Assembly (NCBI GenBank): GCA_965247265.1
Contig: OZ252002.1
Location: 1,962,565 to 2,026,564 of the forward strand
Origin: Gammaproteobacteria bacterium
Lineage (GTDB): Bacteria; Pseudomonadota; Gammaproteobacteria; UBA4575
Direction: 5' to 3'
DNA length: 64,000 nucleotides
Position numbers and translations under genes: made by a program. A model generated the notes under the pieces. The model searched no databases and was not told where the DNA came from. It worked only from the letters and a program-made list of their open reading frames with translations. Numbering within the stretch: position 1 is the first letter of the stretch; the number at the start of each line of letters is the position of its first letter. Positions 1,307 through 28,451 of the stretch are shown piece after piece.

Positions 1307-1380
1307 TGGAGGCTAGGACCGGAATCGAACCGGTGTCCACGGCTTTGCAGGCCGCTGCATAACCACTCTGCCACCTAGCC
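1307..1380 (-). tRNA. cysT: tRNA-Cys (anticodon GCA)
   Basis: Reverse complement GGCTAGGTGGCAGAGTGGTtATGCAGCGGCCTGCAAAGCCGTGGACACCGGTTCGATTCCGGTCCTAGCCTCCA folds as a cloverleaf with anticodon loop CUGCAAA. Resembles E. coli tRNA-Cys. Confidence 0.85.
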
Positions 1381-1444
1381 TAACTCTTTTTAATATCAAT
1401 CAGATAGTTAACTACTCAACTAACTTTAGACGTGATTTTGGCGA

Positions 1445-1849
1445 TTATGTCTTGGATTGTGACATATCGACTAAACACTCTTGGTACTGTCTTAATCCGC
1501 CATCAGTAAAATGACTATATCTTTTAGCCATCTTCTCAGACTTCCATCCCCCAAGTTCTTGTAGAATCCTGGTTGAGACATTACTTTGAGCAAGCCAGCT
1601 TGCGTATGTATGTTGTAGCGTATGAAACGTCACATCTTTCAGTTTCTCCCTACGTCATGCATTCTCAAACACACTTCGTATAGTCTTTAATCGTTTGCCA
1701 CGATATGAAAACACATACTGTGAGTTATCAGCTAGCTTCCATCGTCTTTGCAAGACATCAAGCGCAGTGAAATTTAACGAAACAGTACGAGCCTGTCCAT
1801 TCTTATGTTGATCGGGATATATCCAGCACACCCCACTCTCTAAATCCAC
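1445..1849 (-). pseudogene. tyrosine recombinase (phage integrase) remnant, two out-of-frame C-terminal fragments
   Basis: ORF 1445..1633 carries ...HTLQHTYASWLAQSNVSTRILQELGGWKSEKMAKRYSHF (integrase catalytic C-terminus with HxxR...Y region). ORF 1655..1849 is an upstream integrase core segment. No N-terminus is present. Confidence 0.55.
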
Positions 1850-2111
1850 TTGCTCCCATTCAAGACCTAGAATATTCGATTTCCTGAGTCCAGCACGGGC
1901 AAATCAGATCAAGTTTGGCAGGTGATAACCACAACGCAACATCGACACTTTGCCTTCTCGATATTGCCTGCGGCGCCGAACCCGAAAGTTGTATCGATGA
2001 CGCGAAAATCATGCCGCCTCAACCAACAAAAGAAACGACCGACTCTAGGTGGTACTTTTGGCATGGCCTGGCTGTCCGGGACACAATATACACATTGTTG
2101 CGGCAAAGCCG

Positions 2112-2687
2112 TTAGCGGATATCTTCATCAATCACCTCTCGCAGCAGCTGCATTAGCGTCTCATCCTGATAGCAGGTCTTGTTGATGAGCTCTTTTGCTC
2201 GTGCGGATAGGCGCCGATAGCCCCAGCTTGATCGCCGTTTGGTCTCGGCCCACCCCTCGCGTTGGTAGTAGAGTGGGAGGTTGACATCGAAATATGAGAT
2301 GCTGTCCGCATCCTTGAGCAGATCGGAGCGGGAATCGCCACCCACCTCATGAACCTCCACCAGGCGGCAGGCCTCATCCGCAATATCCCATGCCACGCCG
2401 CATGCGTTTAGAATCGGGCGCAATATTTTCGCCCCATTGCTGGCATGAGCTGCCTTAAAGGCATCGTAATCGTCGAAGTCAGCACGCTTGACCTTTCTCA
2501 CGTCGTCGGCCCGGTCGATGTCATGTGCCAAGGCCGCCAGTTGCAAGGCATCGCCGGCATCCGGTTCCAGGCGCAACAGCCATTCCAAAGTATTGTCGGC
2601 GTGACGGGGATCTTCAGGCACTCGCGAGCCCGCAATGAGCGCCCGGATCTTGCGTTTCGCACGATCGACGTTACGCATCACGCACAA
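2112..2687 (-). CDS. HD-domain phosphohydrolase-like protein (191 aa), last gene of the inositol-phosphate operon
   Basis: H...(25)...HD motif (RHADNTLEW...LAALAHDIDR). Start overlaps the upstream gene by 17 nt. GC-rich. Confidence 0.45.
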   Translation of the reverse strand: MCVMRNVDRAKRKIRALIAGSRVPEDPRHADNTLEWLLRLEPDAGDALQLAALAHDIDRADDVRKVKRADFDDYDAFKAAHASNGAKILRPILNACGVAWDIADEACRLVEVHEVGGDSRSDLLKDADSISYFDVNLPLYYQREGWAETKRRSSWGYRRLSARAKELINKTCYQDETLMQLLREVIDEDIR

Positions 2688-3996
2688 TCATGACCCGGCG
2701 TAGTGTCTCAACATTCATCACCACGGCGATTATCACCAGTACTGGCAACACCAGATTACTCACCGCACCCAGAAAGATAACGAACACGCGCACATCCCGC
2801 CCCATACGCAACCCGGCCTCGCCGCTAGCCGCAATGCGGTCACGCATCAAGTTGTCATATTTATCTGCCGTGTAACTCAGCATAAACGAGCCGATAATAG
2901 CCATGAAACCAGCTAGCAGAACCCAGCCAATCGCTTGCTCCGCAAGGCAATGCCAGGTCAAGCCGAACAGCAGAAAAGCGTCGGCATACCGGTCCAGCAC
3001 CGCATCGAACCAGCTTCCAAAACCGCTGCTTTGGTATTTGAGTCTGGCCACTTCACCGTCGCAACCGTCGACGATCGATGCGAATTGAGCCAGAACACCA
3101 CCAGTGAGGAGGGCAATATACCCGCCCAACGCAAAAAGTCCGGCTGCTAATAGGGAACACACAAATGAGAACATCGAAATCTGATTAGGGGTAATATCGA
3201 AATTCACCAAATGACGTGACAAACGCGCGGAGATCGGGCGGTTTAAATAACGTGCTACCGGACCGTCGTTTGCCTTGTCGCGGAGACGATTCAGCAAGGC
3301 TTTCTCTGCTCTTTGGAAAGATTGGGAATCATCCACATCAATCCAGAAATCCGACGTCGGGATCGCCTTGGCGTGTCCTTTAGCGGCCAAAATCCGCACA
3401 GCCCCGGACAAACTGTTATCACAATTTCCTTTGCTTTGATCCAGTGCCCTAAATATAGCGGGAGTACATAGGAAAACACCGGTGTCGAAGCCATTGAAGT
3501 CGGACAGTCCCTTACTGATATCATGGATCTTTCCGTCCACCATCTTGACCCGAGTGACATCCCCCATATCGACCAGGGGATTGCAGGTATCGCTGTCCAC
3601 CACCAGTGCAATCTCCTCCCTGGGCAGGGTAAGCGTTGTCAATGTACGAACGAGTGATGGCTCGAACAGATGATCCGCCATTAGCAACAAGAAAGGATCC
3701 TGCAGGTGCTCTCGCGCTTTGAGTACCGAAAGGCCGTTGTCTTTGTCCCAATCGTCATTTACCAGCGGAGTGATCCGAATCGCAAGACGTTCCGCCAGCC
3801 GTTCGAGAAAAAGGCGAACCCGCTCGCCCTGGTAGCCGATAACGACATAAAATTCCTCCCCCCGCCCCACGGCCTCCAGGACAGTGCGGATAACACGTTC
3901 AATCAGGGGGATCCCGAGGATGGGGATGAGAGGCTTGCTGTCACCCCTCTGCTGCAGCCGGCTGCCTTTGCCCGCTGCGATGATCAGGCACTTCAT
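2671..3996 (-). CDS. bifunctional nucleotidyltransferase / CDP-alcohol phosphatidyltransferase (IPCT/DIPPS-like; CTP:inositol-1-phosphate cytidylyltransferase fused to di-myo-inositol-phosphate-phosphate synthase)
   Basis: N-terminus MKCLIIAAGKGSRL... is a sugar-phosphate nucleotidyltransferase fold. The C-terminal 190 aa are a multi-TM CDP-OH transferase with the D-G-x2-AR...G-x3-D-x3-D motif (DGCDGEVAR...FDAVLDRYAD). Same domain order as archaeal IPCT/DIPPS. Confidence 0.65.
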   Translation of the reverse strand: MKCLIIAAGKGSRLQQRGDSKPLIPILGIPLIERVIRTVLEAVGRGEEFYVVIGYQGERVRLFLERLAERLAIRITPLVNDDWDKDNGLSVLKAREHLQDPFLLLMADHLFEPSLVRTLTTLTLPREEIALVVDSDTCNPLVDMGDVTRVKMVDGKIHDISKGLSDFNGFDTGVFLCTPAIFRALDQSKGNCDNSLSGAVRILAAKGHAKAIPTSDFWIDVDDSQSFQRAEKALLNRLRDKANDGPVARYLNRPISARLSRHLVNFDITPNQISMFSFVCSLLAAGLFALGGYIALLTGGVLAQFASIVDGCDGEVARLKYQSSGFGSWFDAVLDRYADAFLLFGLTWHCLAEQAIGWVLLAGFMAIIGSFMLSYTADKYDNLMRDRIAASGEAGLRMGRDVRVFVIFLGAVSNLVLPVLVIIAVVMNVETLRRVMIVRDA

Positions 3997-5116
3997 GCAC
4001 TCTCCCCAGTTTATTATTGATAAAGGCTTCTGTCATACGATGGGCTTCATCATCAGTGAACTGCCGTGACGGATGTTTGCAGAAATAGGCCGATGGTGCT
4101 TCCAGTACGCCACTCTGGCCCCGGTCCAATGCCAGCTTGGCACAACGAATCATATCGATGGCCACGCCCGCCGAGTTGGGCGAATCCTCCACCGACAGAC
4201 GCATCTCGAGATTCATTGGTATGTCGCCAAACAGTTTGCCTTCCATGCGCACGAAGGCGATCTTGTTGTCATTCTGCCAGGGTACATAGTCACTGGGACC
4301 GACATGGATATTGTCGTCGTCTAAACGGCGGTCGGTCACGGCCTGCACCGCCTCGGTCTTGGATTCCTTTTTGGAAGCCAGACGGTGGCGGTTCAGCATG
4401 TTTAGAAAGTCGGTATTGCCGCCAGTATTAAGTTGATAGGTGCGTTCCAGCTTAACCCCTCGTTTGGCAAATAGGTCAGTCAGTACGCGGTGGGTAATGG
4501 TTGCCCCCAACTGGGATTTAATATCATCGCCGATAAGGGGCAGTCCGGCCTCTTTAAAATGATCTGCCCACGCTCCTTCAGGATCGCTGGCGATGAAGAC
4601 CGGGATATTGTTGACAAAGGCCAAACCGGCCTTCAATGCGCAGCCGGCATAAAACCGGGTCGCCTCCTCAGAGCCGACAGGCAAATAGTTCACCAGGACT
4701 TCCGCACCGGATTCCTTGAGCGCTTTGATAATTTCTTCTTCCGCAGGCTCTGGTTCATCGGCCAGAATAAAAGTACGTTTTTCGTCGTAATTTTTCATGT
4801 GGTCCGAAAACCCGTCGAGGATTCTGCCCATCCGTACAGTGACACCGGATTCAGGGAGTTCAGAACAGAAAACCGTCGTGCAGTTGGGTGGGGAATAAAT
4901 GGCCTCGTGCACATCGACGCCGACTTTTCGCTGGTCGGTATCGAAGGCCGCGACGACCTCTATGTCGCCGGGTTTGTATCCGCCAATCTCCCAATGCATC
5001 AGACCGATGGCCTCCAGCGGCGTCTTTTCCCGATAGTAGTGGAGGCCCTGTATTAAAGAGCTCGCACAGTTTCCAATCCCGATGATTGCAATCTTAATCT
5101 TATTCAAATTCATCAC
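3941..5116 (-). CDS. myo-inositol-1-phosphate synthase (archaeal/bacterial short type, 391 aa)
   Basis: N-terminal Rossmann motif IAIIGIGNCASSL. The central region aligns with short archaeal MIPS around GDDIKSQLGATITHRVLTDLFAKRGVKLERTYQLNTGGNTDF. Overlaps the downstream IPCT/DIPPS start. Confidence 0.7.
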   Translation of the reverse strand: MMNLNKIKIAIIGIGNCASSLIQGLHYYREKTPLEAIGLMHWEIGGYKPGDIEVVAAFDTDQRKVGVDVHEAIYSPPNCTTVFCSELPESGVTVRMGRILDGFSDHMKNYDEKRTFILADEPEPAEEEIIKALKESGAEVLVNYLPVGSEEATRFYAGCALKAGLAFVNNIPVFIASDPEGAWADHFKEAGLPLIGDDIKSQLGATITHRVLTDLFAKRGVKLERTYQLNTGGNTDFLNMLNRHRLASKKESKTEAVQAVTDRRLDDDNIHVGPSDYVPWQNDNKIAFVRMEGKLFGDIPMNLEMRLSVEDSPNSAGVAIDMIRCAKLALDRGQSGVLEAPSAYFCKHPSRQFTDDEAHRMTEAFINNKLGRVHEVPDHRSGQRQPAAAEG

Positions 5117-5496
5117 TTGCCTCTCATTATTGTTGTGTTTAGCTAACTGCTATCTTGTCGAAGATAGCATACTCGCGATCACTACCCCGTATGCCGGCAA
5201 AAATGGCGCCAACTTTTTTTGCTGCTGGCACCCCAGCCCAGATCTGCGCCGCGAAAGGTGGTCAGAGTTGGTCCTTTCATCTTTAGTTCTTTGAAAATAA
5301 TAAATTGAAATCTGAACACAATCACGAGGCGCTTTGTGAGTCAGTTCAAAAAATATATCGCTCAGCGAACTGGGCGTGTCACAGCGTGACATCGATACGT
5401 CCATTTAGACGTTATTGACGTCGATTATCGTAGATTTTAATGTAACTGTGTTATATATGATTATGTTCTAATTAAATATATATTTGATACTTGCTG

Positions 5497-5534
5497 TTTT
5501 GCAGGCCGCTACATAACCACTCTGCCATCTAGCC
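5497..5534 (-). repeat. partial tRNA-Cys copy (5' half, about 37 nt, 2 mismatches); candidate att-site remnant
   Basis: TTGCAGGCCGCTACATAACCACTCTGCCATCTAGCC matches positions 1344-1380 of the intact tRNA-Cys. Same orientation. Confidence 0.7.
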
Positions 5535-5586
5535 ATATAAATGTTAATTTTTCTTCAGAGCGTATTAACGATCCATAAAGTAAAAA

Positions 5587-5612
5587 AACCTCGAGAAATT
5601 AATCGAGGTTTT
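5587..5612. terminator. bidirectional rho-independent terminator hairpin
   Basis: AAAAAAACCTCGAgaaattaaTCGAGGTTTTAAAAA: 8-bp stem, A-run before and T-run after. Confidence 0.5.
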
Positions 5613-5853
5613 AAAAATTAATACCATCTAAACGTTAGACTTGTCACTGAATTTGCGATTCAATCATTTAAACAGCGCTATTTCAGGAATCTTTCAATTC
5701 TCACCCATTCTGCGTATTTTTATGAATCTAAAGGTGCGCAAATGTACAAAGATTACAGCCACAGCTAGAATCCGTTGTTCCGGCTTTTCTAAAACTAATG
5801 ACAAGTTTTGAATTAAGAGAAAATTAGACTAATTTTCCCTCAAGATGGCTTTG

Positions 5854-6039
5854 CTAGCCAAATATGCTCATAAACTTCCACACGAGGAAGCCAAGAAGAA
5901 TCAATGAAATCACCACATAGGCTTTGACAAAAAGCCAATCTGAAAATGTGAGAGATGAACCACTCGCCACAGTACCGTGGTTAGGTGCCCCAAGCTCTAA
6001 ATTGATAGGTTTTTGATATGATTGAATTACATCATCCAT
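5854..6039 (-). CDS. small membrane protein, hypothetical (61 aa)
   Basis: ORF with a C-terminal TM segment. Confidence 0.3.
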   Translation of the reverse strand: MDDVIQSYQKPINLELGAPNHGTVASGSSLTFSDWLFVKAYVVISLILLGFLVWKFMSIFG

Positions 6040-6553
6040 ACAGGAAATTATCCTAAACTATGTTCTCAACAAATCTAACCTACATCACAAAAATTAAGGA
6101 TTGATGAAATTTTTCTGAATGTAGATTTATTTATTCTTTAAGCGTGTGCAAAGCCGCTTACATAAGCGGTCAATGACCATAAAAGGATAAAAAAGTAGTA
6201 ACCTGCGAATGTAGCGGTAAGTATCAACATCACAAGCAGTAAAAGCGCTTCAAACATAGGTATTTATACAATTATTTTAAACGGTTAGTTATAAATAATC
6301 GTTCAAATGAATGTTATTATAGGAAAATTACAGCGCCCTATGTGTATCTAGGTTCCAGTTAAGCACACATCGCTTAATTCACAGATATATCGCGTGAGTG
6401 GCAATATGAAAATTGAGTTGAATAACAGTGAATAGATTGCGTCAAAGACAATTACGAGACTGCTATATATTAGTGTGGTTTTAGTACCTATGAATTAGGT
6501 GCTATTGAGTTAATTTGGAACACGCGGAATGTCTGTACGTACAAAATATTTAA

Positions 6554-6928
6554 TCATTCTACTTCTACAATATCTGCTTTTAAGCTAGAAACAAATTCAG
6601 CTATTTCATCGCATTCTTGATTTGGAACATTTAATGCCTGCATGGTATCGCCTGCATGACTCATAAAAATTGACCAATCACTTTCACTTATTCCCATGCC
6701 AATATGTGATGTTTTCATATCTCGTCCTGTGTAATACATTGGCCCTCCCGCACTCGCGCATAAATTATCAATAAGCAGCTGCTTCTCTCGTGCTACGCTA
6801 TCATCCCCCCTATTCTGCCAAAACCGCCCAAGTTGTGCGTCTGCTTCTAAACGAGGAAGCAAATCTTCCACAAAATTGATGATTCCTTCATATCCGCCTA
6901 ACCTTTCGTATAGTGATTTATCACTCAT
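6554..6928 (-). CDS. truncated hemoglobin (group I 2-on-2 globin)
   Basis: LYERLGG...GGPMYYTGRDMKTSHIGMGIS matches the trHbN/GlbN family signature. Confidence 0.7.
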   Translation of the reverse strand: MSDKSLYERLGGYEGIINFVEDLLPRLEADAQLGRFWQNRGDDSVAREKQLLIDNLCASAGGPMYYTGRDMKTSHIGMGISESDWSIFMSHAGDTMQALNVPNQECDEIAEFVSSLKADIVEVE

Positions 6929-7055
6929 ATTGATTCCAACTTAATTGTGTGTCACGCCATGATCTTGGCTTAACACAATCAAGATTGCTAGTGAACAGCA
7001 ATAGTAAATAGTAATTTTTGAGGTGAATAATATTTGGGGATTTTTTATTTTCTCA

Positions 7056-7940
7056 TCAAAGCAGTTGGCCCTGCACAGTGGTAATGACATGCCCACCCAC
7101 ACTCACTTCGCAGCCTTCATCTAGCATGCGTGCACGCAACATTATCAATGAAGGCCGACGAACTTCATGACCTTGCTCAATTCTAATTGACAAACTGGTC
7201 CCTGGGAAAAGTTGATGTTTCATTAAGTAAGCACCTAAAAAGGCGGCACCATTTCCTGTAGCTGGATCTTCTCGTACACCATGCGCTTCAAAGAAAAATC
7301 TAACGCATAGATCGTTTTGTGGTGTATGGGTCTGCTGGCAAAATAAGTAAACAAGAGGAGAAAATCCTTCACGTGCCAATGTGGCAAACTTATTAAGGTT
7401 GAGGTTACAGCGACTAAGCGCTTCCAGGCTTCGAATTGGAACAATTAGAGCCGAAGTGCGGGCAGAAATCATCTGTATGGGTGTGCTTGTCTCAATATCT
7501 TCTTGTGAAATACCAAGTGCTGCGGCCATGGGTCCACATGTAGTCGTTGCACCTAAAGTCATCTGAGGTGCCTGAAACCACGCAACTTGTTTTTCTTTAG
7601 CAGATTTTTCATACGTAACAGGTACCTGTCCTACGGCAATATTAAGAAGTACCTTCGAAGTGGGTTCAGGCAAAATACAGTTTCGAATGATATGAGCCGT
7701 GCCAAGAATGGGATGCCCAGCAAATGCAATTTCTTGTGATGGCGTGAATATTCGAACGCGGTACCCACCATTATCATCGGGTACAGATATCGCAAAGGTC
7801 GTTTCAGAAAAATTCATTTCTGTCGCAATCTTCTGCATTATTTCAGCAGACAATGGCTCTTCGCCCACAACAACAGCCAGCGGATTTCCAGAAAAGGGTT
7901 GTTCTGCGAACACATCCACCAAGTAAAATTGCTGTGTCAT
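7056..7940 (-). CDS. PhzF-family phenazine-biosynthesis-like isomerase
   Basis: N-terminus ...VDVFAEQPFSGNPLAVVVGEE...MQKIATEMNFSETTF is the PhzF/YddE signature. 294 aa. Confidence 0.75.
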   Translation of the reverse strand: MTQQFYLVDVFAEQPFSGNPLAVVVGEEPLSAEIMQKIATEMNFSETTFAISVPDDNGGYRVRIFTPSQEIAFAGHPILGTAHIIRNCILPEPTSKVLLNIAVGQVPVTYEKSAKEKQVAWFQAPQMTLGATTTCGPMAAALGISQEDIETSTPIQMISARTSALIVPIRSLEALSRCNLNLNKFATLAREGFSPLVYLFCQQTHTPQNDLCVRFFFEAHGVREDPATGNGAAFLGAYLMKHQLFPGTSLSIRIEQGHEVRRPSLIMLRARMLDEGCEVSVGGHVITTVQGQLL

Positions 7941-8486
7941 TTTAGTTTGCGCCCATTTGCCATTTCTTTCTTATAACATTGCAATTTTGCCCATGAAGCA
8001 ATCATTACGCGAGAATTAAGTGGCGCATCACAGTAAGTAAAATCTGCCTCTAAAGTTTGCTAACCGTGATAATTTCACAGTGCTAAACCTGCACTCATTC
8101 TATATATACAATTAATTACTATAGATTATTACTATATCTAATTGAATTGTTTGATAAATATTCTTCTGAAAGTATTTTGAGCGGTTTTGGGTAACCCTAG
8201 GCAAAATTTCGTATCCAACTTCGGGATCTGTACCCTCACTATCCATCTACCTCTTTATGGTTAAGCTCTTCGAGCAATTGACCTTTTGTCCCGTCTCATT
8301 GAGGATCGGAATTGATAAGCATTCCGCGAAGTGATTGCAGCTCTGATCGCAATAACTATGACGGGCTTCATTGAGCATGATATGGCACACAAAATTAGTA
8401 GTGTTTTAAGGTACCTATAGGGTAAATTGATAGACATCAACTGCCTAAAAACCAGTCATTAGTAAACCTTTTGGTTAATAATTCAG

Positions 8487-9558: not shown

Positions 9559-10019
9559 ATGACCAACCGCCGCAGGGCGTCCAGATCGCATCGATCGAGG
9601 GAAGGAGCGAGAGGGTATCGGGTCCGGCTAGCGAACCCATCCGGATCCGTCGCGGCGCATGGCGGCCCGGCTCCGAACGCCATCATCAAGCGTTTCAAAG
9701 AGGAGGAGTATCCTCAGAAGCAGCGCGTAGTGCTACCGTTACGGCGGCGTCCAGTTCCAAGAGCGCATCAGCCTTGAGCATATCCCTTATGGCTCGCCTC
9801 CTGGACGGCAACGCATGATCCGCACCGGAGTCGCGCAATGCCTGCTGCCGCTCAGATCCGGAAACCGACTACACGATCCCGCTTGAATGCGGGCACAGTA
9901 AGCATGTACGGTGGGGTCGACATCGTAGACTGCCGCCGACGAAGCGAGATGATGGGCAGAAAAGAAACCACGGCACCGCCCGCGCCGTCGCCGTTTATGG
10001 GGGACTACATAATCAGAAT

Positions 10020-13707: not shown

Positions 13708-13753
13708 GAATGCCTCCTTTGGCGTCGGCGATATCGACGGCGGTGTTACTGGT

Positions 13754-14393: not shown

Positions 14394-14425
14394 TTCACCA
14401 TATTCCCATATTTACGGATTTGTCG

Positions 14426-15855: not shown

Positions 15856-15859
15856 AAAA

Positions 15860-15894
15860 GGCCCGTAACTTCACATGGTTACGGGCTTTTCCCT
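15860..15894 (+). terminator. rho-independent terminator following the tRNA fragment
   Basis: GGCCCGTAACttcacatgGTTACGGGCTTTTCCCTTTT. Confidence 0.6.
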
Positions 15895-16041
15895 TTTCGC
15901 AGCCATGACGCGATTAGCGTCGTGGACGCACAGTGGACGCATGAGGGAGCATAATCCTGCACGTTTCTGCGCGACACCGCGCAGGCCGCCCGACTGAGAT
16001 CGCGCGACGTTGACGGCTTACCCGCTGACCTTGGCAGACGT

Positions 16042-22000: not shown

Positions 22001-24405
22001 GGCGTGGCGATCTTGCTGGAGGGCAGGCCGGTGATGCCGGACGTATCCACCGCCCGCACCGTGAAGGTGTATTCGGTGCCGTTGGTCAAGGTGGAAATGG
22101 TGGTGGTCGTCGTGTTCCCCGATCCGGCCGGGACGTCCAAGATCTCAGGCGTCGCGCCGCTGCTGGTGGCCTGCCAATGGATCCGATAATGGGTGATCAA
22201 GGCGTTGCCCGTATCCCACTGCAATATGGCTTGGCCGTCGCCCGGCTCCGCCGCCAGATTGGTCGGTGCCGGCCACAGTGGCGTGGCGGTAATGGCGGCG
22301 GCCGTACCGCCAGCTAAATCGTTAGCCGCGCGCAGCGCCAACGTGTGTGCGGTTCCGTTGGTCAGGCCGGTCACGGTGTGTTCGAGGGTGTTGTCCGTAT
22401 TGTTTTCGATGATGTCGTTGCTGTCGATATTGGTGAAGATCGTGCCACCGTCGGTGCTCACCTGATATTTGGCGATCGTGCTGTCAGCCGGATTGTCCCA
22501 AGTCAGAGTGGCCTTGCGGTCTTCGCCCTGCGTGACCGAGAGGTTCGCCGGGGCGGGCCACAGGGGAATAGCATCGGCGTTGGCCGGATTGCCGTTTCCG
22601 GAAGCGTTCACCGCGCGTACCCACAATGTGTATTGGGTGCCGTTGGTCAGGCCGGTTACGGTGTAGGTGGTGGTGGTCCGACTGCTGCCGCTGATGTCGG
22701 TGAAGTTCCCGCCGCCGTCGGTTCTGACCTGGTACTTCCTGATGGTGTTGTCGCCCGGATTGATCCAGGACAGCGTGACTTGGCCGTCACCCACCGTAGC
22801 CGAGAGGCCCGTCGGTTCGGCCGGTGGCGCGCGCGGCGTCGCGGTCGCGGTGGATGCCTGGCCGGGACCGGAAATGTTCCTCGCGCGCAACTCGAACGTG
22901 TACTCGGTGCCGTTGGTCAGGCCGGTCACGGTGTGTTCGGTGGTGTCCACACCGCTGCCGTCGATGTCCGTCCACGCAGTGTAGGTGCTGTCGTCGCTGT
23001 CCGTCACCTTCGAGCGGACCTGGTATCTGGCGATCGTGTCGCCGCCCGGATTGGACCAGGACAGCGTGACCGCGCCGTCACCCGGCACGGGCAAGAGGCT
23101 CGTCGGGGCGGCCGGGAGCGTCGCGGCGGTCACGGTGGCTGCTGTGCCGTTGCCACCAACATTCTTCGCACGCACCGCAAACGTGTACGCGGTGCTGCTG
23201 GTGAGGCCGGTCACGGTGTATCCGGTGGGGGGCGCATCGGGGTCGGTGACGGCGATGTTCGCCCACGCAGTGTAGGTGCTGTCGTCGCTGTCCGTCACCT
23301 TCGAGCGGACCTGGTATCTGGTGATCGTGTTGTTGCCCGGATCGCCCCAGTTCAGCGTCACCTCGTCGGTTTCATCCGACGCGGCCGAGAGGTTCGGGGC
23401 GGCCGGAAGCGTCGCGGTGGTCACGGTGGCTGCTGCGCCGTTGCCGCCAACATTCTTCGCACGCACCGCAAACGTGTACGTGGTGCCGCTGGTGAGGCCG
23501 GTCACGGTGTAGCTGTCGGTGCTCGCACCGCTGCCGCCGATATCGGTCCAGTTGCCGTAGTCGCCCGCGCCTGTTTTCCGGCGATACTGGTACTTGGTGA
23601 TCGTGTTGTTGGCCGGATCGTCCCAGGTCAGCGCCACCTCGGTTTCACCCGGCGCGGCCGAGAGGTTCTCCGGCGCCGCCGGGGCCAAGGTGTTCCCCTG
23701 GACCCTGATTTGTATCGAAGTTGAGTACACACCGCCATCATCCTCCCAGCCCCCGGTTCTGTCAGACCGGCGCGTGTAGCGGTGATTGCCGATGCTCCAC
23801 TCTATGGCCTTGCCGGAATCTTCGTTGTCGTTAGCCGTCAGGTTCCAACGAGGTCTGGTTCCGCTACCGTCAAACGTCATGTGCACGAAGTATTGGGTGT
23901 TTCGAGTCAGAGTGGCTACGCCAGGGGCGGTGAATGTCTGGAGTCCCGTCCCTATGTTGGACGGGTTGGTCAAGGTGTATAAGACCGCGTTGCTCGGGCG
24001 ACCCGATCCGGTGGCGGCCCCCACCGTGACCGTCAGGGTTCCACTACCCGGAGCCCCCTGCGTGTCCAACTGGATACTTGATAGGTCGTAGCCCCGCGTA
24101 TTCTGGCCCGTGGTGAACCCCTGAGCACAGTCTAGTTCTATTATTGGTTCAGAACCTTGGACACATGCTGTATGGCCGTGGGTGGTTTGGCCCGTGTTGC
24201 TCACGAGGGTTTGGGCGTGCGCCGGCGCCGTGAAACCGAGCGGCAGCACCACGGCGGCGAGGACTGCGCCGATGATTACCAGCCGTGGGAAAGATCTCAC
24301 GGAAACTATCCCCCTGCACGCGCCTGTTCGACACAACGTCGGGCTACTTGCGTTTTTGGCGTGAATTATATCGTTATTCATGTTCGTCTGCTTGCTTGCA
24401 GTCAC
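16042..24405 (-). CDS. giant autotransporter adhesin (2787 aa): signal peptide, about 18-20 fibronectin type III repeats, Calx-beta-like region, C-terminal outer-membrane beta-barrel
   Basis: N-terminal signal peptide ...LGFTAPAHAQT. Repeats of about 95 aa of pattern LPAAP..L.A.....V.L.W..P....I..YQ.R.......T......TTYTVTGLTNGTEYTF.VRA.N..G.G. C-terminus alternates hydrophobic residues and ends ...AVMLRGQMRF (terminal Phe). About 68% GC. Plus-strand ORFs inside are artefacts. Confidence 0.8.
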   Translation of the reverse strand: MTASKQTNMNNDIIHAKNASSPTLCRTGACRGIVSVRSFPRLVIIGAVLAAVVLPLGFTAPAHAQTLVSNTGQTTHGHTACVQGSEPIIELDCAQGFTTGQNTRGYDLSSIQLDTQGAPGSGTLTVTVGAATGSGRPSNAVLYTLTNPSNIGTGLQTFTAPGVATLTRNTQYFVHMTFDGSGTRPRWNLTANDNEDSGKAIEWSIGNHRYTRRSDRTGGWEDDGGVYSTSIQIRVQGNTLAPAAPENLSAAPGETEVALTWDDPANNTITKYQYRRKTGAGDYGNWTDIGGSGASTDSYTVTGLTSGTTYTFAVRAKNVGGNGAAATVTTATLPAAPNLSAASDETDEVTLNWGDPGNNTITRYQVRSKVTDSDDSTYTAWANIAVTDPDAPPTGYTVTGLTSSTAYTFAVRAKNVGGNGTAATVTAATLPAAPTSLLPVPGDGAVTLSWSNPGGDTIARYQVRSKVTDSDDSTYTAWTDIDGSGVDTTEHTVTGLTNGTEYTFELRARNISGPGQASTATATPRAPPAEPTGLSATVGDGQVTLSWINPGDNTIRKYQVRTDGGGNFTDISGSSRTTTTYTVTGLTNGTQYTLWVRAVNASGNGNPANADAIPLWPAPANLSVTQGEDRKATLTWDNPADSTIAKYQVSTDGGTIFTNIDSNDIIENNTDNTLEHTVTGLTNGTAHTLALRAANDLAGGTAAAITATPLWPAPTNLAAEPGDGQAILQWDTGNALITHYRIHWQATSSGATPEILDVPAGSGNTTTTTISTLTNGTEYTFTVRAVDTSGITGLPSSKIATPAPVPDPPANLSPTARSQEVALTWADPDDDTITKYQVSTNGGTNFIDIEGSSAATTTTTVTGLTNGTEYTLAVRAVNDSGPGAAPRVTATPLWPAPTGLVAVPDKGRVVLQWDTGDSGIARYAVRTTLTGTNTQVSDNAHESGSGNKTTVSVGGLTDGTNYTFTVRAASGTFTNFQITGAASTATATPAVALPAAPTGLMPTAGDGEVLLTWDDPNNLTISGYDYSTNGGVTTFVSIGDSSATTTEYTVVFLSDGGGNIVINGTQYTLAVRAENASGKGPWATVTATPIAKPAAPANFAATRGSDGGEVALTWDDPGNVPITGYQYRQKRGNRAFGDWTDIDGSGATTVSHTVTGLSNGRQHTVELRAVNASGEGAASSDKATPLWPAPNLVATPDHGRVHLEWTGVPGAKDYTLTTKGPGVNWSSFLSFGASPSKVDDSIGLDPNHPLANGTEYTFTVWSTTAGGTQTSVKASVKATPVAPPLPADPTISSATPGDSRVVLKWDDPGNITITKYQVRWKVKDSNDSTYTPWADITSPNPFATPPTHPTTYTATGLINGTTYTFEVRAGNGTGEGPASTVDAMPIAIPDAPENLSAAPGDGQVALSWSKPSNDATIGNYDYEVSTDGGDNYSGIPNSDKETTAHTVMGLTNGTEYTFAVRAENDAGKGLAATVTATPMAVPAAPTALSATAGATEVALAWDDPDDDTITGYQVSTDGGETFADIDDTDISENDTDNTLAYTVTGLTNGTEYTFKLRAVNASGVGAASTVTAPTLPAAPTGLMAEGGEDRQVTLSWDDPDNNMVSGYQYSTDGGTTFIDIESSGAATTTHTVTVLSDGTGTRLTNGTEYTFELRAVNLSGAGAASPETATPLWPAPTGLVAAPGEGQVMLTWDRGDPGIARYKVSTYYTPINSVDPLLETFLSPGSGDQTTLLIPGLTNRTDYTFTVQAVDTSGDDTVITGRAGSVDAMPVPVPAPPANLAAMPANGQAVLTWDDPNDSSITRYQYRQRVSGADFGDWSDIGGSSATTTTYTVTGLTNGSPYGFELRAVNASGDGEASSVGATPIAVPDAPTISSATPGDGQVVLAWNDPSDRSITKYQVRSKVRSSNDSTYTAWANIAVTDPDAPPTGYTVTGLTNGTEYTFAVRAVNDPGNGPASTVTARPIAPPAAPEISSVGPGYRKVTLTWADPNDSTITGYQVSINGDDNFTDIPNSAHHQTNATGYTVPGLKNGTEYTLAVRAMNDAGEGDASAANATPFNNPPTGSSKEVSTYDNEPYRFTMKDFAYSDDEVDTLHHVKIASPPVDDEGNDRGTLSLNGAAITSDILPRQVTPADLEAGKLLYTPPENAHGEPFATFGFKVSDGESDSVAYAMAISVVRVYLVRFGAAAYAVEEGGDPVRVTVTLSKQAADALEIPITVTPRGRTVAADYTVTVTDPDVLDPATGTVTLKFEETGDTTRSFTIEATEQAKQDDNFHDVRVALGFGTLPTDVAKGAPARATLTIVDAEGTVVQARFRRLNDEILSKHALTLADVTNRAIGARMDEACGKQAAAYTLAGGSTLYDTLRSNAPAIEDDALTLADVLAGSSFRLPLAAAANDGMAPGAGGPVVWGRGERQVLESTESAFAWDGTVLTGQLGIDGCLREDLLTGLALSRSIGEFDYSDGTGSSPVRGDYESRMTSVHPYLGWTSPQGLGLWATVGYGWGDIEIEDAQVRDGDPDYPVRRSDTTLKTAAAGASGPLMTDESPIAGGTMALELRSEASWAQVEVEGDDGLIEEQTVNAWRLRLALEGSHEQALASGGSLTPSLELGLRHDGGDGITGTGIEIVGSLRYRDPAAGLTVEGHGRVLTGQSNYQEWGLGGSVRLDPSAEGRGLSFSLFPTWGETASGVDRLWDQDVAELASDDRAANDNVPQMRLDSELGYGFGALGGHGLLTPYGGFSLAGEGSQRYWIGSRFEIGSSLNLSLEGERREPANDAAADHAVMLRGQMRF

Positions 24406-24576
24406 GCTGTCCTACTCACCGGTTACTGGCCCTCGTTATGTGGCCTTCGGCTGGTAATCATACCAAAGGGAGCATTCTCTAGACAGTTCTTAGTCGAACC
24501 TGTCAAGTGTCCTAGCCCCTAAACTTGATCCACATTTTAAGAGAGAATTGTATTTTGTAGTGGCCAAGGGGTTCAT

Positions 24577-24942
24577 ATGCGCAAGCGTTTCAAAGAGACC
24601 GAGATCATCAATCTGTTGCGAGGCATTGAAGTAAAGATAGCCGAAGGCCGGGCCGTGCCGGATGCGTGTCGCAGTGCGGGCGTGAGTGATAAAAGCTATT
24701 ATCGCTGGCGTAAGCTCTACGGCAGTATGGGCAGCAGTGAAGTGAAGAAGTGTAAGGAATTGGAGAAGGAGAACGATCGACTCAAACACATTGTCGCCGA
24801 TTTGGAACTCGATAAATGCATCCTGAAGGAAGCGCTGGATTTTTTAGGACACAAGGGGCAGGTCCCGAACAAGTACGCAAAACGGTCATGCATGTCCGTC
24901 AACGCCTGGGGAGTAGCGAGCGCCGCACCTGTCGTATATTAG
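24577..24942 (+). CDS. IS3-family transposase OrfA
   Basis: MRKRFKETEIINLL...SYYRWRKLYG...ELEKENDRLKHIVADLELDKCILKEAL. Confidence 0.7.
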   Translation: MRKRFKETEIINLLRGIEVKIAEGRAVPDACRSAGVSDKSYYRWRKLYGSMGSSEVKKCKELEKENDRLKHIVADLELDKCILKEALDFLGHKGQVPNKYAKRSCMSVNAWGVASAAPVVY

Positions 24943-25724
24943 ATCAACCTCGCAGCACGCAACGCTATGGTTGCATCCAGAATACTGACAATGAGGATGC
25001 CCTGAGACTAGCCCTGGTTCGTTTGGCCAAGCAGTACGGGTGGTACGGTTATCGCAAGATGACCGCCTTGCTTCGCATCGAAGGTTGGCGCGTCAATCAC
25101 AAAAAAGTCGGACGTTTATGGCGAGAAGAAGGATTGCAAGTACCCAAGCGTCATAAGAAACGTAAACGGCTCTACGACCATAAACATTCCATCATTCGGA
25201 TGCGGCCCCTCTATCCACGACACATCTGGAGTGTTAATTTTGTACAAGATCGACTCATCCATGGTCGCCCCTACAAGATGTTAACGGTAATCGATGAATA
25301 TACCCGGCAGTGTTTAATAGTTGCCACGCAGTTTGCGATGACGTCACAAGAGGTGTTGGAAACACTGAGCCAACTCTTTATTCAACATGGAAAACCCCAC
25401 TATATCCGTAGTGACAATGGCGGCGAATTCAAAGCCAGGCGGTTACAACAGCGGCTCACGCAAGTCGGTGTAGAACCGATTTATATCTACCCCGGCAGTC
25501 CTTGGGAGAATGGATATAACGAACGCTTCAATGGCACCTTACGAAATGAAGTACTTAACCTCGAGGTCTTCTATTCCATCCAAGAAGCACAATCAGTGAT
25601 TAAACAATGGGTGCAACAATACAATCACACCAGGCCCCGTCAATCATTAAACTATCGACCTCCTGTGCCCGAAACCACGACACCTGCTCTCTCACAAGAA
25701 GTGGTACATACCAAGGGGGCTTGA
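24816..25724 (+). CDS. IS3-family transposase OrfB (DDE integrase core)
   Basis: ...RRTCRILDQPRSTQRY...HIWSVNFVQD...LTVIDEYTRQCL...IRSDNGGEFKA...WENGYNERFNGTLRNE. Confidence 0.75.
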   Translation: MHPEGSAGFFRTQGAGPEQVRKTVMHVRQRLGSSERRTCRILDQPRSTQRYGCIQNTDNEDALRLALVRLAKQYGWYGYRKMTALLRIEGWRVNHKKVGRLWREEGLQVPKRHKKRKRLYDHKHSIIRMRPLYPRHIWSVNFVQDRLIHGRPYKMLTVIDEYTRQCLIVATQFAMTSQEVLETLSQLFIQHGKPHYIRSDNGGEFKARRLQQRLTQVGVEPIYIYPGSPWENGYNERFNGTLRNEVLNLEVFYSIQEAQSVIKQWVQQYNHTRPRQSLNYRPPVPETTTPALSQEVVHTKGA

Positions 25725-25759
25725 CATGAGATGGTGACGACTGTGACAGTGAATTTTTA

Positions 25760-26199
25760 TTATCAAAAATTATCTCAATAACTCTTTTACCAGTACCACC
25801 TTTTCGTTTACGAATAATATTTACCCCCATTTTTCGTAAAGCTGGTTGAAGCTCAGTAAGCCTGTTACTAAAAGTAGCTGGAATATTTGGCCATCCTCTT
25901 GGTTTGCGCTTTCCAGCAATTTCCCACTGCATTATTCGATCAATAATTTCTAATAATTCTGATGCCGTACCTATCCATTGATCTTGATTTTTTGAAAATG
26001 TGTATATGGCACTACCTAGTAGAGAGTTTTCAATTGTCACCTGGGCATTATTGACATACTTTTTCATATAAATATTTGTAAATTCATGTTCTTGCCATCC
26101 AAATGCAGGAGAAGCAGCTGTAGCCAATAAAACAAAGTCAGCCATTCGGGGCAGTCTATCTAATCGGGTGTGAGGTAACTCGCGCAGTGCAACAGACAA
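25760..26199 (-). pseudogene. IS-truncated gene fragment (phage/plasmid replication-protein-like; function uncertain)
   Basis: ORF opens just upstream of 26199 and runs into the IS3 right end. No confident domain call. Confidence 0.25.
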
Positions 26200-26271
26200 C
26201 CCTTTTTATAGTGCGCCGAGCATTTTTGGTCTAGCAATATCAAACTCTTTTCAGAAAAGACAATATCTAGT

Positions 26272-26811
26272 TTGTGTGAATCAGGTCATTTTCCTCATGC
26301 AGTTATTGATAGAGCCATTTGGTTTAGAAAATCTATCTCTCAAGCTTGGGTTAATGAAAATTTAACAGAATACTTTGATGGCAAACCTTTTAAACCAATT
26401 GTAATAAATAAAATAAATTACACAGATGGTATCGAATCAATCAAAGATTTAGATTTACATTTCCTGAACGAATTAAGCTGTATAGCAGATCGTTTGTATC
26501 AACTAACTGGTTTACCACCAGGTATTTATTTTTTGATTAAGAGCAGTGAAATTGTCTACATAAGCAAAAGTGTTTGTCCATTTAGTAGAATAAAGTCACA
26601 TAAAACTAACAACAAATTATTTGATCATGCCTATCTATTACCTGCACCAGAAATCTACCATACAGAATTAGAAACTGAATTAATTAAGTTATATCAACCG
26701 CCATTAAATAATGAAATTGCTAAGAAGCTTAAGACTTGGGAAAAGTCTAAATATAAAAATGCACAAACATTAGTTACTAAAGTACTGAAAAATGAAGCTG
26801 TTAAGACTTAA
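26272..26811 (+). CDS. GIY-YIG nuclease-domain protein (phage-associated)
   Basis: ...GIYFLIKSSEIVYISKSVCPFSRIKSHK... is a GIY-YIG-like motif. AT-rich. Confidence 0.45.
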   Translation: MCESGHFPHAVIDRAIWFRKSISQAWVNENLTEYFDGKPFKPIVINKINYTDGIESIKDLDLHFLNELSCIADRLYQLTGLPPGIYFLIKSSEIVYISKSVCPFSRIKSHKTNNKLFDHAYLLPAPEIYHTELETELIKLYQPPLNNEIAKKLKTWEKSKYKNAQTLVTKVLKNEAVKT

Positions 26812-27037
26812 AGATTATCGGTTGCGCTTTTACGAGCATCCAAGACCAGCATTAAAAACGTTAAAAAAATACGTTCGTGATGGCGATTTATCAGGCGGTT
26901 TTATTGATAGTAAAGGATATTATTGGGTAGACTTGGACAAAACCGAAATTGAAAATACTCGTTTAGCAGAAGATATCGAAATCGACGAAATTTTAAAACG
27001 CACTCCTGAAGCAGAAGAACAAATAAAAGGTTTATGA
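26792..27037 (+). CDS. small phage protein upstream of and overlapping the integrase (possible excisionase/regulator)
   Basis: 81-aa ORF overlapping the integrase start by 4 nt. Assigned by position only. Confidence 0.3.
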   Translation: MKLLRLKDYRLRFYEHPRPALKTLKKYVRDGDLSGGFIDSKGYYWVDLDKTEIENTRLAEDIEIDEILKRTPEAEEQIKGL

Positions 27038-28185
27038 ATCCTAGAAAGTGGAAGCACGACTTACCAGATAATTTAACACTGGATGAGTCTAAAGGTCGTT
27101 ATCGTTACTGGCATCCTATTAAAAAAAATCGAACCTGGCTGGGAAAAGATAAAGCCAAAGCTATGCAATTAGCTACAGATTTTAATCTTGCTATTGAATT
27201 ACAATTACAAAAAAGACGAATCGAGAATGGAAATCCATACAAAGTTAAACATCTTGTTAATTTGTTCCGTGCATCTGCGATTCATAACGAGCCGTGGGAT
27301 GATGGCACAAAACGTAATTACGAATTTAAGTTAAATGTAATTAATGATGAATATGGAAATCACCATTTTGTTGCTATTGATCGTTTAGAAATTGATAAGT
27401 TTTTAACACTACGTTGTAAAAATGCTGATACTTGGAATAAATGGCGGTATGTATTCATATTGTTATATCGCTTTGCTATTAGCAAAAAAATAGTCGAATT
27501 TAATGAAGCTGAAGCTGTATTGAAAAGATCGACTAGCAAAAAAATAGCATATAACCGCACTCAGAGAATCCCTTTAACTATAGATCGTTTCTGGAAGATT
27601 CATGATCATGAAGAAACCGAACCTTTTATGAAAGTGGCAATGAAGTTTTCACTGGTAACATTACAATCAAGATTTGAATGTGTAAGTGTAAAATATACAG
27701 ATGAACGAGACGGATTTATTTATATTATTCGCGACAAGACATCTGGTGATTCAGATATGGCCTTTATTCGTATCGAAGTTACCGACCAAATAAAGGAGAT
27801 CATTGGTGAATCACGTAACGATAATGTAGTAACCCCTTACATTGTTCATCGTAAACCTAAATCACGCCAACGTCGACATATAGATAACAAACCACACTGG
27901 ACTTATGTTGAGCCTGATTTTATTACCAAGGAATTTCGCAGAGTAATGTTATTAGCATGTCCTGAATATAAAAATACAGGTCGTCAATGCCCTACTTTTC
28001 ATCAAATACGTAAGCTTGGCGCGAATCTGTATTACGACGGTGGCTACACAAAGGACCAAGTACGCTCACTCATGACTCACACAGACGAGAAAACCACTCA
28101 AATCTATTTAACCACTGGCCAAGTACCAGATAATCGATTTATCAAGGTAAAAGCCTCACTTAAGCTGTCAGATTTTAGAACTTGA
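27034..28185 (+). CDS. int: tyrosine site-specific integrase (383 aa) adjacent to tRNA-Gly
   Basis: C-terminus ...RQCPTFHQIRKLGANLYYDGGYTKDQVRSLMTHTDEKTTQIYL carries the HxxR and catalytic Tyr. Transcribed toward the tRNA-Gly 3' end 127 nt downstream. Confidence 0.8.
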   Translation: MNPRKWKHDLPDNLTLDESKGRYRYWHPIKKNRTWLGKDKAKAMQLATDFNLAIELQLQKRRIENGNPYKVKHLVNLFRASAIHNEPWDDGTKRNYEFKLNVINDEYGNHHFVAIDRLEIDKFLTLRCKNADTWNKWRYVFILLYRFAISKKIVEFNEAEAVLKRSTSKKIAYNRTQRIPLTIDRFWKIHDHEETEPFMKVAMKFSLVTLQSRFECVSVKYTDERDGFIYIIRDKTSGDSDMAFIRIEVTDQIKEIIGESRNDNVVTPYIVHRKPKSRQRRHIDNKPHWTYVEPDFITKEFRRVMLLACPEYKNTGRQCPTFHQIRKLGANLYYDGGYTKDQVRSLMTHTDEKTTQIYLTTGQVPDNRFIKVKASLKLSDFRT

Positions 28186-28216
28186 TCACAGTCGGTGAAC
28201 GGTTGCGCTTTTATAA

Positions 28217-28260
28217 TTTTTGAGTAGACACATAGACACAAAGTTTGTGTCTACTTTGTG
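28217..28260. repeat. nested perfect palindrome between the integrase and tRNA-Gly (GTAGACACA TAGACACAAAG t TTGTGTCTA ctt TGTGTCTAC)
   Basis: 10-bp perfect inverted arms TAGACACAAA / TTTGTGTCTA with an outer 9-bp pair GTAGACACA / TGTGTCTAC. Candidate integrase core-binding site or terminator. Confidence 0.5.
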
Positions 28261-28311
28261 TCTACAGTTTAGAACGTGATTTTTACAAGTGATTGAATTG
28301 TAAAAAGAATA

Positions 28312-28388
28312 ATGGAGCGGGAAACCAGGTTCGAACTGGCGACCTCAACCTTGGCAAGGTTGCGCTCTACCAACTGAGCTATTCCCGC
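28312..28388 (-). tRNA. glyW: tRNA-Gly (anticodon GCC)
   Basis: Reverse complement GCGGGAATAGCTCAGTTGGTAGAGCGCAACCTTGCCAAGGTTGAGGTCGCCAGTTCGAACCTGGTTTCCCCGCTCCA resembles E. coli glyW. The 3' acceptor strand has one extra C (77 nt). Confidence 0.85.
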
Positions 28389-28451
28389 TTAAGAGTGCAC
28401 TATTCTATTGATCAACATCGCTGAGTCAATAAACCTGGTAAATGTAAAATA

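Follow-up and report, generated by a model that had tools for sequence, protein, structure and literature searches.

A probable composite genomic island at the ancestral glyW-cysT junction of an uncultured low-GC gammaproteobacterium

In a 64-kb stretch of chromosome from an uncultured gammaproteobacterium of low G+C content (GC), hereafter the window, the genes for tRNA-Cys and tRNA-Gly lie on the same strand, 26,932 nt apart. We find that the interval between them is, very probably, a composite genomic island assembled at the ancestral glyW-cysT junction in five or more separate events. That islands stack up at tRNA genes is textbook knowledge; in Enterobacteriaceae, tRNA-associated islands and hotspots are known at leuX, pheV, selC and asnT, and Williams is said to have classified, in 2002, the sublocations of tRNA genes. 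The interval resembles such islands in having tyrosine recombinases beside tRNAs, a crossover in an anticodon loop, stacked unrelated elements, atypical composition and decaying integrases. It differs from them in that two adjacent tRNAs of one operon appear both to have been used, whereas the largest insert used neither. The locus changes no concept; it is an ordinary island with an unusually readable record of arrivals.

The host has a 2.76-Mb chromosome, and the proteins of the window are found on a single contig of 2,764,221 bp (NCBI/ENA). The tRNA searches covered positions 1 to 34 kb, within which ARAGORN and Rfam concordantly called exactly two tRNAs, tRNA-Cys and tRNA-Gly; an Rfam scan of the same range at a permissive threshold returned no further RNA genes. 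Both tRNA genes, as well as pgsA and uvrC beside tRNA-Gly, are on the minus strand, which bears out the initial annotation of the window, where the distance had been put at about 27 kb. The nearest pgsA loci, with one genome taken per species, belong to uncultured Gammaproteobacteria and to metagenome-assembled genomes (MAGs) of Thiotrichales, at 80-83% protein and ~70-73% DNA identity. On the pgsA-uvrC side the window is collinear with five of them (L001-L005) out to ~39 kb.

For the ancestral-state test 80 loci were fetched, of which 56 have tRNA-Gly(GCC) after pgsA. In 43 of these 56 gamma- and betaproteobacterial loci tRNA-Cys is no more than 300 nt from tRNA-Gly, usually with tRNA-Leu next; the adjacency is, thus, ancestral for a wide range of gamma- and betaproteobacteria. 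The initial annotation had taken the adjacency from E. coli. It was right about the ancestral state, but the organism is not E. coli-like and its close relatives already have the pair split. In L001-L003 synteny breaks at the 3′ end of tRNA-Gly, and in L004 and L005 the alignments extend a few nt beyond it. The sequence past tRNA-Gly is different, and backbone-like, in each of L001-L004, and the junction must therefore have been unstable in the host clade for a long time; no tRNA-Cys occurs within 10 kb of tRNA-Gly in L001-L003. Since the pair is separated in every close relative sampled (L001-L004 and the sister-strain contig L092), each time with its own content, the split must be old and its content turning over, rather than a recent fill of an intact pair. 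In L004 the spacer measures 2.6 kb, and its three genes, one for a MarR regulator and two of unassigned function, have homologues at 46.6-48.9 kb of the window.

We combined GC change-points with the tetranucleotide distance to the backbone, and refined the resulting segments with homology breakpoints (Table 1). Within the interval GC varies between 0.30 and 0.70, compared with 0.38 in the backbone, taken as the remaining 35.6 kb of the window; the strong variation proposed earlier (35-68%) is, thus, real, and the GC and tetranucleotide profiles do yield distinct segments. Also as annotated, the interval holds integrase genes or fragments and an IS3 element, namely three tyrosine-recombinase genes or remnants and one element of the IS3 family, as well as two partial tRNA copies. 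The latter proved to be the 5′ half of tRNA-Cys and the 3′ half of tRNA-fMet, and neither derives from tRNA-Gly.

One of the events placed a 4,117-bp element, E1, in the anticodon loop of tRNA-Cys. We found a direct repeat, at 1343-1380 and 5498-5535, which corresponds to nucleotides 1-38 of tRNA-Cys and is identical at 35 of 37 aligned positions; the homology stops right after the anticodon loop, and this is the only repeat of either resident tRNA. The contig L092 (ENA sample ERZ26167216, ctg412996) carries at 1650-1836 a single intact tRNA-Cys, identical to that of the window and joined to both window flanks. Downstream of this tRNA-Cys, L092 matches window 1250-1306; upstream of it, the match is to 5535-5615, where a terminator is conserved. 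Because L092 shows the unoccupied site, 1381-5497 is an insertion, one that duplicated the 5′ half of tRNA-Cys. The half at 1343-1380 belongs to the element side, so that the intact tRNA-Cys lies on the downstream side of E1, in the reverse of the usual arrangement. The displaced half bears two substitutions, A7 and T24, consistent with drift after displacement of the native half.

Directly upstream of the restored tRNA-Cys, on the same strand, lies the remnant of the E1 integrase. The motifs ARAGLR (box I) and HTLQHT (box II) are still present in it, as is the Tyr; a stop codon interrupts the frame near 1655, and nothing is left of the N-terminal domain. E1 is a fossil element without a functional recombinase, and the loss of this domain has fixed it in place. 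In viral-contig scans the remnant found only relatives of 30-36% identity. Upstream of position 1380 a weak promoter match, TTGAGT-N18-TATTAA, can be picked out by eye, and a consensus scan around tRNA-Cys did no better than on shuffled sequence.

Zhao and Williams reportedly described, in 2002, integrative elements that recombine with the 5′-distal part of a tRNA or tmRNA gene. Such integration is called 'considerably less frequent' than 3′ integration in a passage of one paper (PMC6563490). As in the integrators outlined in that passage, E1 supplies the 5′ portion of the gene, the native 5′ portion is displaced and the integrase gene stands upstream of the restored gene. E1 differs from the integrators of that passage in its gammaproteobacterial tRNA-Cys target, its tiny size (4.1 kb) and its dead integrase. 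It provides a bacterial case of this rare 5′-distal integration with an empty-site control.

Could the tRNA-Cys fragment, instead of being an attachment-site (att) repeat, be what a non-specific insertion or deletion left of a second tRNA-Cys gene? The probability that a breakpoint falls by chance within or beside the anticodon loop of 7 nt is ~0.1, and the integrase, being dead, has no demonstrable activity. We nevertheless consider this very unlikely, given that the empty site in L092 connects exactly both flanks through one tRNA, that the integrase remnant adjoins the restored gene, that none of the 80 loci has tandem Cys genes, and that the breakpoint falls at the classical crossover position in the anticodon loop.

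Most of E1 is a cassette of three genes with a predicted role in inositol-phosphate metabolism, whose reading frames are still open. In hyperthermophiles the di-myo-inositol-phosphate pathway employs IPCT/DIPPS together with myo-inositol-1-phosphate synthase (MIPS). The protein encoded at 2671-3996 matches the A. fulgidus IPCT/DIPPS (PDB 4MND) over its full length (E 3.7e-49), keeps the CDP-alcohol phosphotransferase motif DGxxAR..G...D...D and has a neighbouring MIPS gene; the JGI label of its homologues is CDP-L-myo-inositol myo-inositolphosphotransferase. The two-domain architecture, the motif and the adjacent MIPS gene are, thus, common to the archaeal system and the cassette, whereas the carrier here is a low-GC, probably mesophilic gammaproteobacterium and the cassette is mobile. 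We infer a cassette of the di-myo-inositol-phosphate type, with an inositol lipid as an alternative to the predicted product. The cassette is widespread in metagenomes, at 77-92% protein identity.

The whole cassette (1882-5173) recurs in three low-GC contigs, L085, L090 and L091, at 88-91% nucleotide identity, and L092 holds a 1.9-kb part of it (window 3421-5360) at 94%; in each of the four it is conspicuous at a GC of 0.53-0.55. Its surroundings differ: tRNA-Met, rpoD and dnaG are nearby in L090 and L091, a different integrase adjoins it in L085, and IS3 cuts it in L092. L085 also shares with the window a backbone gene (83% identity) and short repeats, which argues that the cassette-bearing contigs come from relatives of the host. 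Judged by these contexts, the cassette moves about within the host clade as a mobile unit.

The homology of the cassette stops at the same nucleotide in four genomes (window 1882, L085 12104, L090 3356 and L091 2155). This end falls inside the box I codons (A-G-L-R) of the integrase, and a recognisable integrase continues only in the window. Past it, L085 and L090/L091 share 7 nt more (9 of the next 10) and then diverge; the common end may mark where different integrase genes have recombined. In L092, a Ser/Thr kinase fragment and two repeat-like open reading frames (ORFs) without assigned function separate tRNA-Cys from the cassette.

The largest part of the interval is a ~15-kb high-GC block (9560-24500), at both ends of which GC changes abruptly. 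For 9800-16050, all three frames of the minus strand were translated, stop codons being masked, and scanned with Pfam and PADLOC. This left half of the block is a decayed island with a P4-type integrase, a VapC toxin and its putative antitoxin, and gajA and gajB. Three GajA fragments matched with PADLOC E values of 1e-45 to 1e-145, and GajB fragments with 4e-28 and 3e-115. As in the Gabija anti-phage system, the two genes are adjacent and in canonical order; unlike there, both are frameshifted into at least three ORFs each, and the system is therefore presumably inactive. The nearest DNA relatives of the decayed island are alphaproteobacterial plasmids, at 66-70%.

About 180 nt beyond the start of the P4-type integrase, on the opposite strand, we found the 3′ half of an initiator tRNA (CTCATAACCTGAAGGTCGTAGGTTCAAATCCTACCCCCGCAACCA), running from the anticodon loop to CCA and followed directly by a terminator hairpin and T-tract (~15857-15895). 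It aligns with the fMet halves of three high-GC contigs (L083, L084 and L094) and of the Ruegeria sp. TM1040 megaplasmid (L093), with compensatory changes in the T-stem. The homology to L083 (92.5%) and L094 (94.4%) carries on beyond the 3′ end of a giant gene and across both the terminator and the fMet half, to end precisely at the anticodon loop; past this point L083 has unrelated DNA, and in L094 a different DUF4102-type integrase (MPKITKRLVD...) begins. The donor lineage, thus, has the same order of integrase, fMet 3′ half, terminator and giant gene with different elements. The Ruegeria megaplasmid shows the converse: an integrase homologous to the pseudogene of the window (66-67% nucleotide identity), the same fMet half (46 of 47 nt) and a different right flank. 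Since the chromosome side is conserved in L083 and L094 and the element side in Ruegeria, 15811-15855 is the scar of an attR site.

By this comparison, what lies to the left of the attR scar is the end of an alphaproteobacterial-type island and what lies to the right is donor chromosome. At the level of sequence, the alignments establish the donor ancestry and the junction architecture of the block. Because it brought its own tRNA-fMet attR, the block is a second-hand junction fragment that entered via neither resident tRNA. The earlier proposal of a serially colonised, partly decayed tRNA hotspot, thus, stands as regards the multiple origins, the partial decay and the insertion of E1 at tRNA-Cys, but not as regards the largest block. 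More generally, an att scar inside an island can reveal a previous host context and separate 'integrated here' from 'arrived second-hand'; automated island callers that count integrases and tRNA fragments would over-count integrations at this locus.

The donor-chromosome part of the block is almost filled by the giant gene, which encodes a predicted type-V autotransporter with a signal-peptide-like N-terminus, ~20 FN3 repeats (17 score individually with Pfam fn3) and a C-terminal beta-barrel ending in Phe (...GQMRF; Autotransporter PF03797, 43.4 bits against a cut-off of 26). Signal peptide, long repetitive passenger, PF03797 and terminal Phe are shared with type Va autotransporter adhesins and with the repeat-rich 'eukaryote-like' surface proteins of host-associated bacteria, whereas the passenger of ~20 FN3 repeats, the length of 2787 aa and the acquisition across a 28-point GC gap set it apart. 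A search with the non-repetitive C-terminal 730 residues returned relatives at 90-91% identity, and all the contexts that we retrieved were high-GC contigs of sample ERZ26167216, the sample that also contains L092, from a sister strain of the recipient. At the nucleotide level, window 16060-24157 is 93.5% identical to L081 over 8.1 kb, and the giant gene is 92.5-94.4% identical to L082, L083, L084 and L094. L081 comes from a 2.6-Mb contig (ctg495700) and has a GC of 0.62-0.69 throughout the 23.7 kb read, so high GC is native there. In the high-GC contigs the gene is split, cut by an insertion sequence (IS) or runs off the contig end, and the window has the only full-length copy seen. These observations document the recent transfer of a very large repeat adhesin across ~28 GC points; a single metagenome contains both the donor lineage and the recipient's sister strain.

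The high-GC genomes hold several split or 5′-truncated copies of this family (L081 5702-13696; L082 10001-12244; L084 10001-12622; L094 5493-8507), which adjoin IS elements, integrases, relaxase genes and Mu-like prophage genes. MAGs of sponge symbionts (P0092, P0120) appear in the names of weaker homologues of the autotransporter, which hints at a host-associated community.

On its right side the block ends at a resident IS element. Its inverted repeats (TGTCCTAGCCCC / GGGGGCTTGACA, TG...CA), its DDE (rve) domain and the overlap of orfA and orfB in the -1 frame assign it to the IS3 family, and comparison with three L092 copies (95-97% identity) served to define its ends. The element is multi-copy in the host, with other copies on the same 2.76-Mb contig. 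It constitutes the right junction of the high-GC block and interrupts an ORF in the segment next to tRNA-Gly; the other part of this ORF is missing. No target-site duplication of 3-4 bp was found at the window element or at the three L092 copies.

The 7 nt to the left of IS3 (24501-24507, TGTCAAG) are the reverse complement of its right terminus (CTTGACA), as a tandem dimer or a circle of IS3, with its ends abutted, would leave behind. In L092 the three copies of the same IS3 lie within 11 kb (276-10911), and one of them is internally deleted and cuts the IPCT/DIPPS gene; IS activity appears to reshape the tRNA-Cys/cassette locus in the population. A composite transposon with a second IS3 at 9.5 kb was considered and rejected, as the similarity there amounts to 16 nt, with none at the protein level or in extended DNA. 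The 16-nt string (CAAGCGTTTCAAAGAG) is identical at 9687-9702 and at 24582-24597, the first codons of the IS3 orfA, and may be there by chance or as the last trace of another IS copy.

Between IS3 and tRNA-Gly an intact xis-int module reads toward, and abuts, the 3′ end of tRNA-Gly, and integration at this gene is plausible. The T-stem of tRNA-Gly has a compensatory swap from G:C to C:G that occurs in none of the five nearest relatives and, among the 56 tRNA-Gly genes of the loci fetched, in only 3; the swap fits a 3′ part of tRNA-Gly supplied by an element, without proving it. The integrase found no relative in viral-contig scans, and 25727-28312 had no match in the phage collection. A nested palindrome with repeated GTAGACAC / GTGTCTAC occupies 28226-28268, between the integrase stop and the 3′ end of tRNA-Gly, and could be a terminator or contain candidate binding sites for the integrase or an accessory protein.

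Between E1 and the high-GC block lie ~4 kb (5536-9559) that are compositionally indistinguishable from the backbone; of the 27 kb initially taken to be foreign as a whole, ~20 kb can be called so. This host-like segment is absent from the compared stretches of L092 and L001-L004. It could be the far end of the tRNA-Gly element, another islet, from a low-GC donor, or relocated native DNA.

These findings suggest the following series of events. E1 would have recombined in the anticodon loop of tRNA-Cys, bringing a replacement 5′ half and displacing the native half to 5498-5535; this insertion itself is directly documented by the empty site. An element with xis and int would have integrated at the 3′ end of tRNA-Gly, of which only the 2.6 kb beside the tRNA survive intact; we infer this step, with the 5.6-9.6-kb segment as, perhaps, the far end of the element. 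The 15-kb high-GC fragment would then have arrived inside an island already present at tRNA-Gly. It consists of the integrase-proximal end of a P4-type/VapBC/Gabija island from a donor tRNA-fMet gene, together with the tRNA 3′ half, the terminator and the neighbouring FN3 autotransporter gene. Most economically, the donor island would have excised aberrantly, together with DNA from its flank, and after transfer have entered by IS-assisted or illegitimate recombination. The right junction of the block is the resident IS3, which interrupts a gene of the tRNA-Gly element; the junction and the cut gene are both seen in the window. Finally, the integrase, vapC, gajA and gajB of the imported island decayed through frameshifts, whereas the adhesin gene (8.4 kb) and the inositol cassette stayed open.

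Specialised transduction (lambda gal/bio) and the imprecise excision of islands and of integrative and conjugative elements carry flanking host genes. The block resembles their products in uniting, in one fragment, an element end, an att scar and an adjacent donor chromosomal gene; it differs in that the fragment has no phage or conjugation genes and landed by non-att recombination beside IS3. We tentatively raise the possibility that an aberrantly excised fMet island of a high-GC, probably alphaproteobacterial, member of the community took the adhesin gene along and became fixed in the gammaproteobacterium, with the adhesin kept intact under selection and the rest decaying. If true, this would show, in directly readable form, how an island accident akin to specialised transduction let bacterial classes share a surface or host-interaction trait.

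Several observations weigh against a composite island of this make-up. The junctions of the block are known from the assembled contig. At ~9560, just after the frameshifted host-like ORF, the left junction shows no IS, repeat or att site. We found no contig with this Gabija island beside the adhesin gene (the best GajB relative is at 74%), so the transfer of 9560-24500 en bloc rests on architecture rather than on a sampled donor; likewise, with copies of the giant gene 92.5-94.4% and not ~100% identical, no sampled high-GC genome is the direct donor. No partial tRNA-Gly repeat that could be an attR and so delimit the tRNA-Gly element was found anywhere in the window. The host-like 4 kb could be native DNA rather than an islet.

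The genome is a single 2.76-Mb contig derived from a metagenome, very similar high-GC sequence occurs in the sample of the sister strain, and the shift in GC is abrupt at either end of the block; the block might, thus, be an assembly chimera with a co-occurring high-GC organism. We judge this highly improbable. Low-GC DNA lies on both sides in one contig, so that a chimera would take two false joins made independently; on the right the junction is an IS3 resident in the host, by which a low-GC gene is truncated as well; the block copy is ~6% off every high-GC contig found and is the only full-length one; and pseudogenes beside an intact 8.4-kb ORF are unlike random error. Also highly improbable, in our view, is that the whole 27 kb arrived once, as a single already-mosaic island. 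Mosaic islands do move as units, and all the pieces lie between two att-capable tRNAs, but L092 has the E1 empty site and yet carries the cassette and IS3 elsewhere, the cassette stands alone in three other contexts, and IS3 is multi-copy and independent. Moreover, the displaced tRNA-Cys half has diverged, whereas the high-GC block gives no sign of drift toward the host composition.

The tRNAs might also have been separated mainly by chromosomal rearrangement, that is, by inversion or translocation at tRNA or IS sites, with part of the interval being relocated native DNA. The homologues of the L004 spacer genes elsewhere in the window, the different backbone-like DNA after tRNA-Gly in L001-L004, the native composition of 5.6-9.6 kb and the IS3 copies without target duplications, which suggest IS-mediated rearrangement, all favour this. 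However, ~20 of the 27 kb are demonstrably foreign, both in composition and in having near-identical relatives in other lineages, and both tRNAs have kept the ancestral order and strand. As the main cause of the separation we find rearrangement unlikely, but a contribution to part of the interval and to the older history of the locus is likely. We, thus, retain the composite island as the reading of the interval as a whole.

Table 1. Segments and features of the tRNA-Cys/tRNA-Gly interval and its flanks (window coordinates)
Feature	Coordinates	Strand	GC	Remarks
Gene remnants beyond tRNA-Cys	1-1306		0.30	
tRNA-Cys(GCA)	1307-1380	-		Intact; ARAGORN, Rfam; identical to tRNA-Cys of L092
E1	1381-5497			4,117 bp; in tRNA-Cys anticodon loop, reversed (5′-distal) polarity
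E1 integrase remnant (segment)	1381-1881		0.40	
Tyrosine-recombinase pseudogene	1445-1903	-		C-terminal catalytic half only
Inositol-phosphate cassette	1882-5173	-	0.535	Pfam
HD/DUF4202 protein	2112-2687	-		Pfam
Bifunctional IPCT/DIPPS-like protein	2671-3996	-		NTP-transferase + CDP-alcohol phosphotransferase; Pfam
Myo-inositol-1-phosphate synthase (MIPS)	3941-5116	-		Pfam
Spacer, left end of E1	5174-5497		0.41	
Displaced tRNA-Cys 5′ half	5498-5535	-		nt 1-38
Native upstream flank of tRNA-Cys	5536-5620	-		Intrinsic terminator 5585-5612 (terminator scan), conserved in L092
Host-like segment (segmentation)	5535-9559		0.40	Tetranucleotide correlation with backbone 0.96
Host-like segment (beyond native flank)	5621-9559		0.40	Tetranucleotide correlation 0.96
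Truncated-haemoglobin-type globin	6554-6928			
PhzF-family protein	7056-7940			
ORF without assigned function	8487-9559			Frameshifted
Decayed high-GC island	9560-15810	-	0.576	
GajB pseudogene	10020-11846	-		UvrD-type helicase; Pfam UvrD-helicase; at least 3 pieces; PADLOC PDLC00104
GajA pseudogene	11827-13707	-		OLD-family ATPase-TOPRIM; Pfam AAA_15, OLD-like_TOPRIM; 3 pieces; PADLOC PDLC00086
PIN/VapC toxin	13754-14130	-		Frameshifted
Antitoxin-like ORF	14127-14393	-		Upstream of PIN/VapC
P4-type integrase pseudogene	~14480-15630	-		Arm-DNA-bind_3 + Phage_integrase; frameshift and stop
tRNA-fMet scar + giant autotransporter gene	15811-24500		0.657	
3′ half of initiator-type tRNA-Met	15811-15855	+		CUCAUAA loop to ...CGCAACCA
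Type-V autotransporter gene	16042-24405	-	0.66	2787 aa; intact; convergent with fMet half
IS3 segment	24501-25726		0.49	IS3 + 7 nt left flank
IS3-family element	24508-25726	+		Pfam rve/HTH_21; orfA 24577-24942, orfB 24816-25724
Remnant of tRNA-Gly element	25727-28312	+	0.346	
ORF cut by IS3	25727-26199	-		
ORF without assigned function	26272-26811			
Excisionase (xis)	26792-27037			Intact; Pfam, PHROGs phrog_629
Lambda-type integrase (int)	27034-28185			Intact; 383 aa; Pfam, PHROGs
tRNA-Gly(GCC)	28313-28388	-		ARAGORN, Rfam
pgsA	28452-29006	-		Backbone gene beside tRNA-Gly
uvrC	29013-30842	-		Backbone gene after pgsA

We also noted some features of the flanks and of the related loci. The three spacer genes of L004 (10702-13170) and their window homologues (46587-48882) are in the same order, with 45-55% aa identity, those of the window lying 18 kb away. 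One of the two unknowns has TPR repeats; the two (235 and 331 aa) correspond to three ORFs in the window (171, 191 and 189 aa) and, being split into shorter ORFs there, may be frameshifted. L001 (OZ244982.1), of all sequenced relatives the closest, has another IS3-family transposase at 11093-11899, ~400 nt past tRNA-Gly and 42-55% identical in aa to that of the window. The flank beyond tRNA-Cys (1-1306) is decayed: it contains, at 646-894 and ~830-965 on the minus strand, an isochorismatase-like N-terminal fragment of ~45 aa and then, in another frame, the C-terminal end of a carbamate/amino-acid-kinase-like protein, as well as a 67-aa membrane ORF at ~170-375. The window has no tRNA-Leu beyond tRNA-Cys, where most other lineages have one. 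Finally, the backbone carries short dispersed repeats of ~35-57 nt (51459-51515, 52356-52394, 55195-55235, 56104-56154, 60363-60399 and 61315-61372), with zero inside the 27-kb interval. They resemble repetitive extragenic palindromes or miniature inverted-repeat transposable elements, and are common to the low-GC contig L085 (many sites, 80-97%), with short matches in L090 and L091 (29-57 nt, 81-97%).

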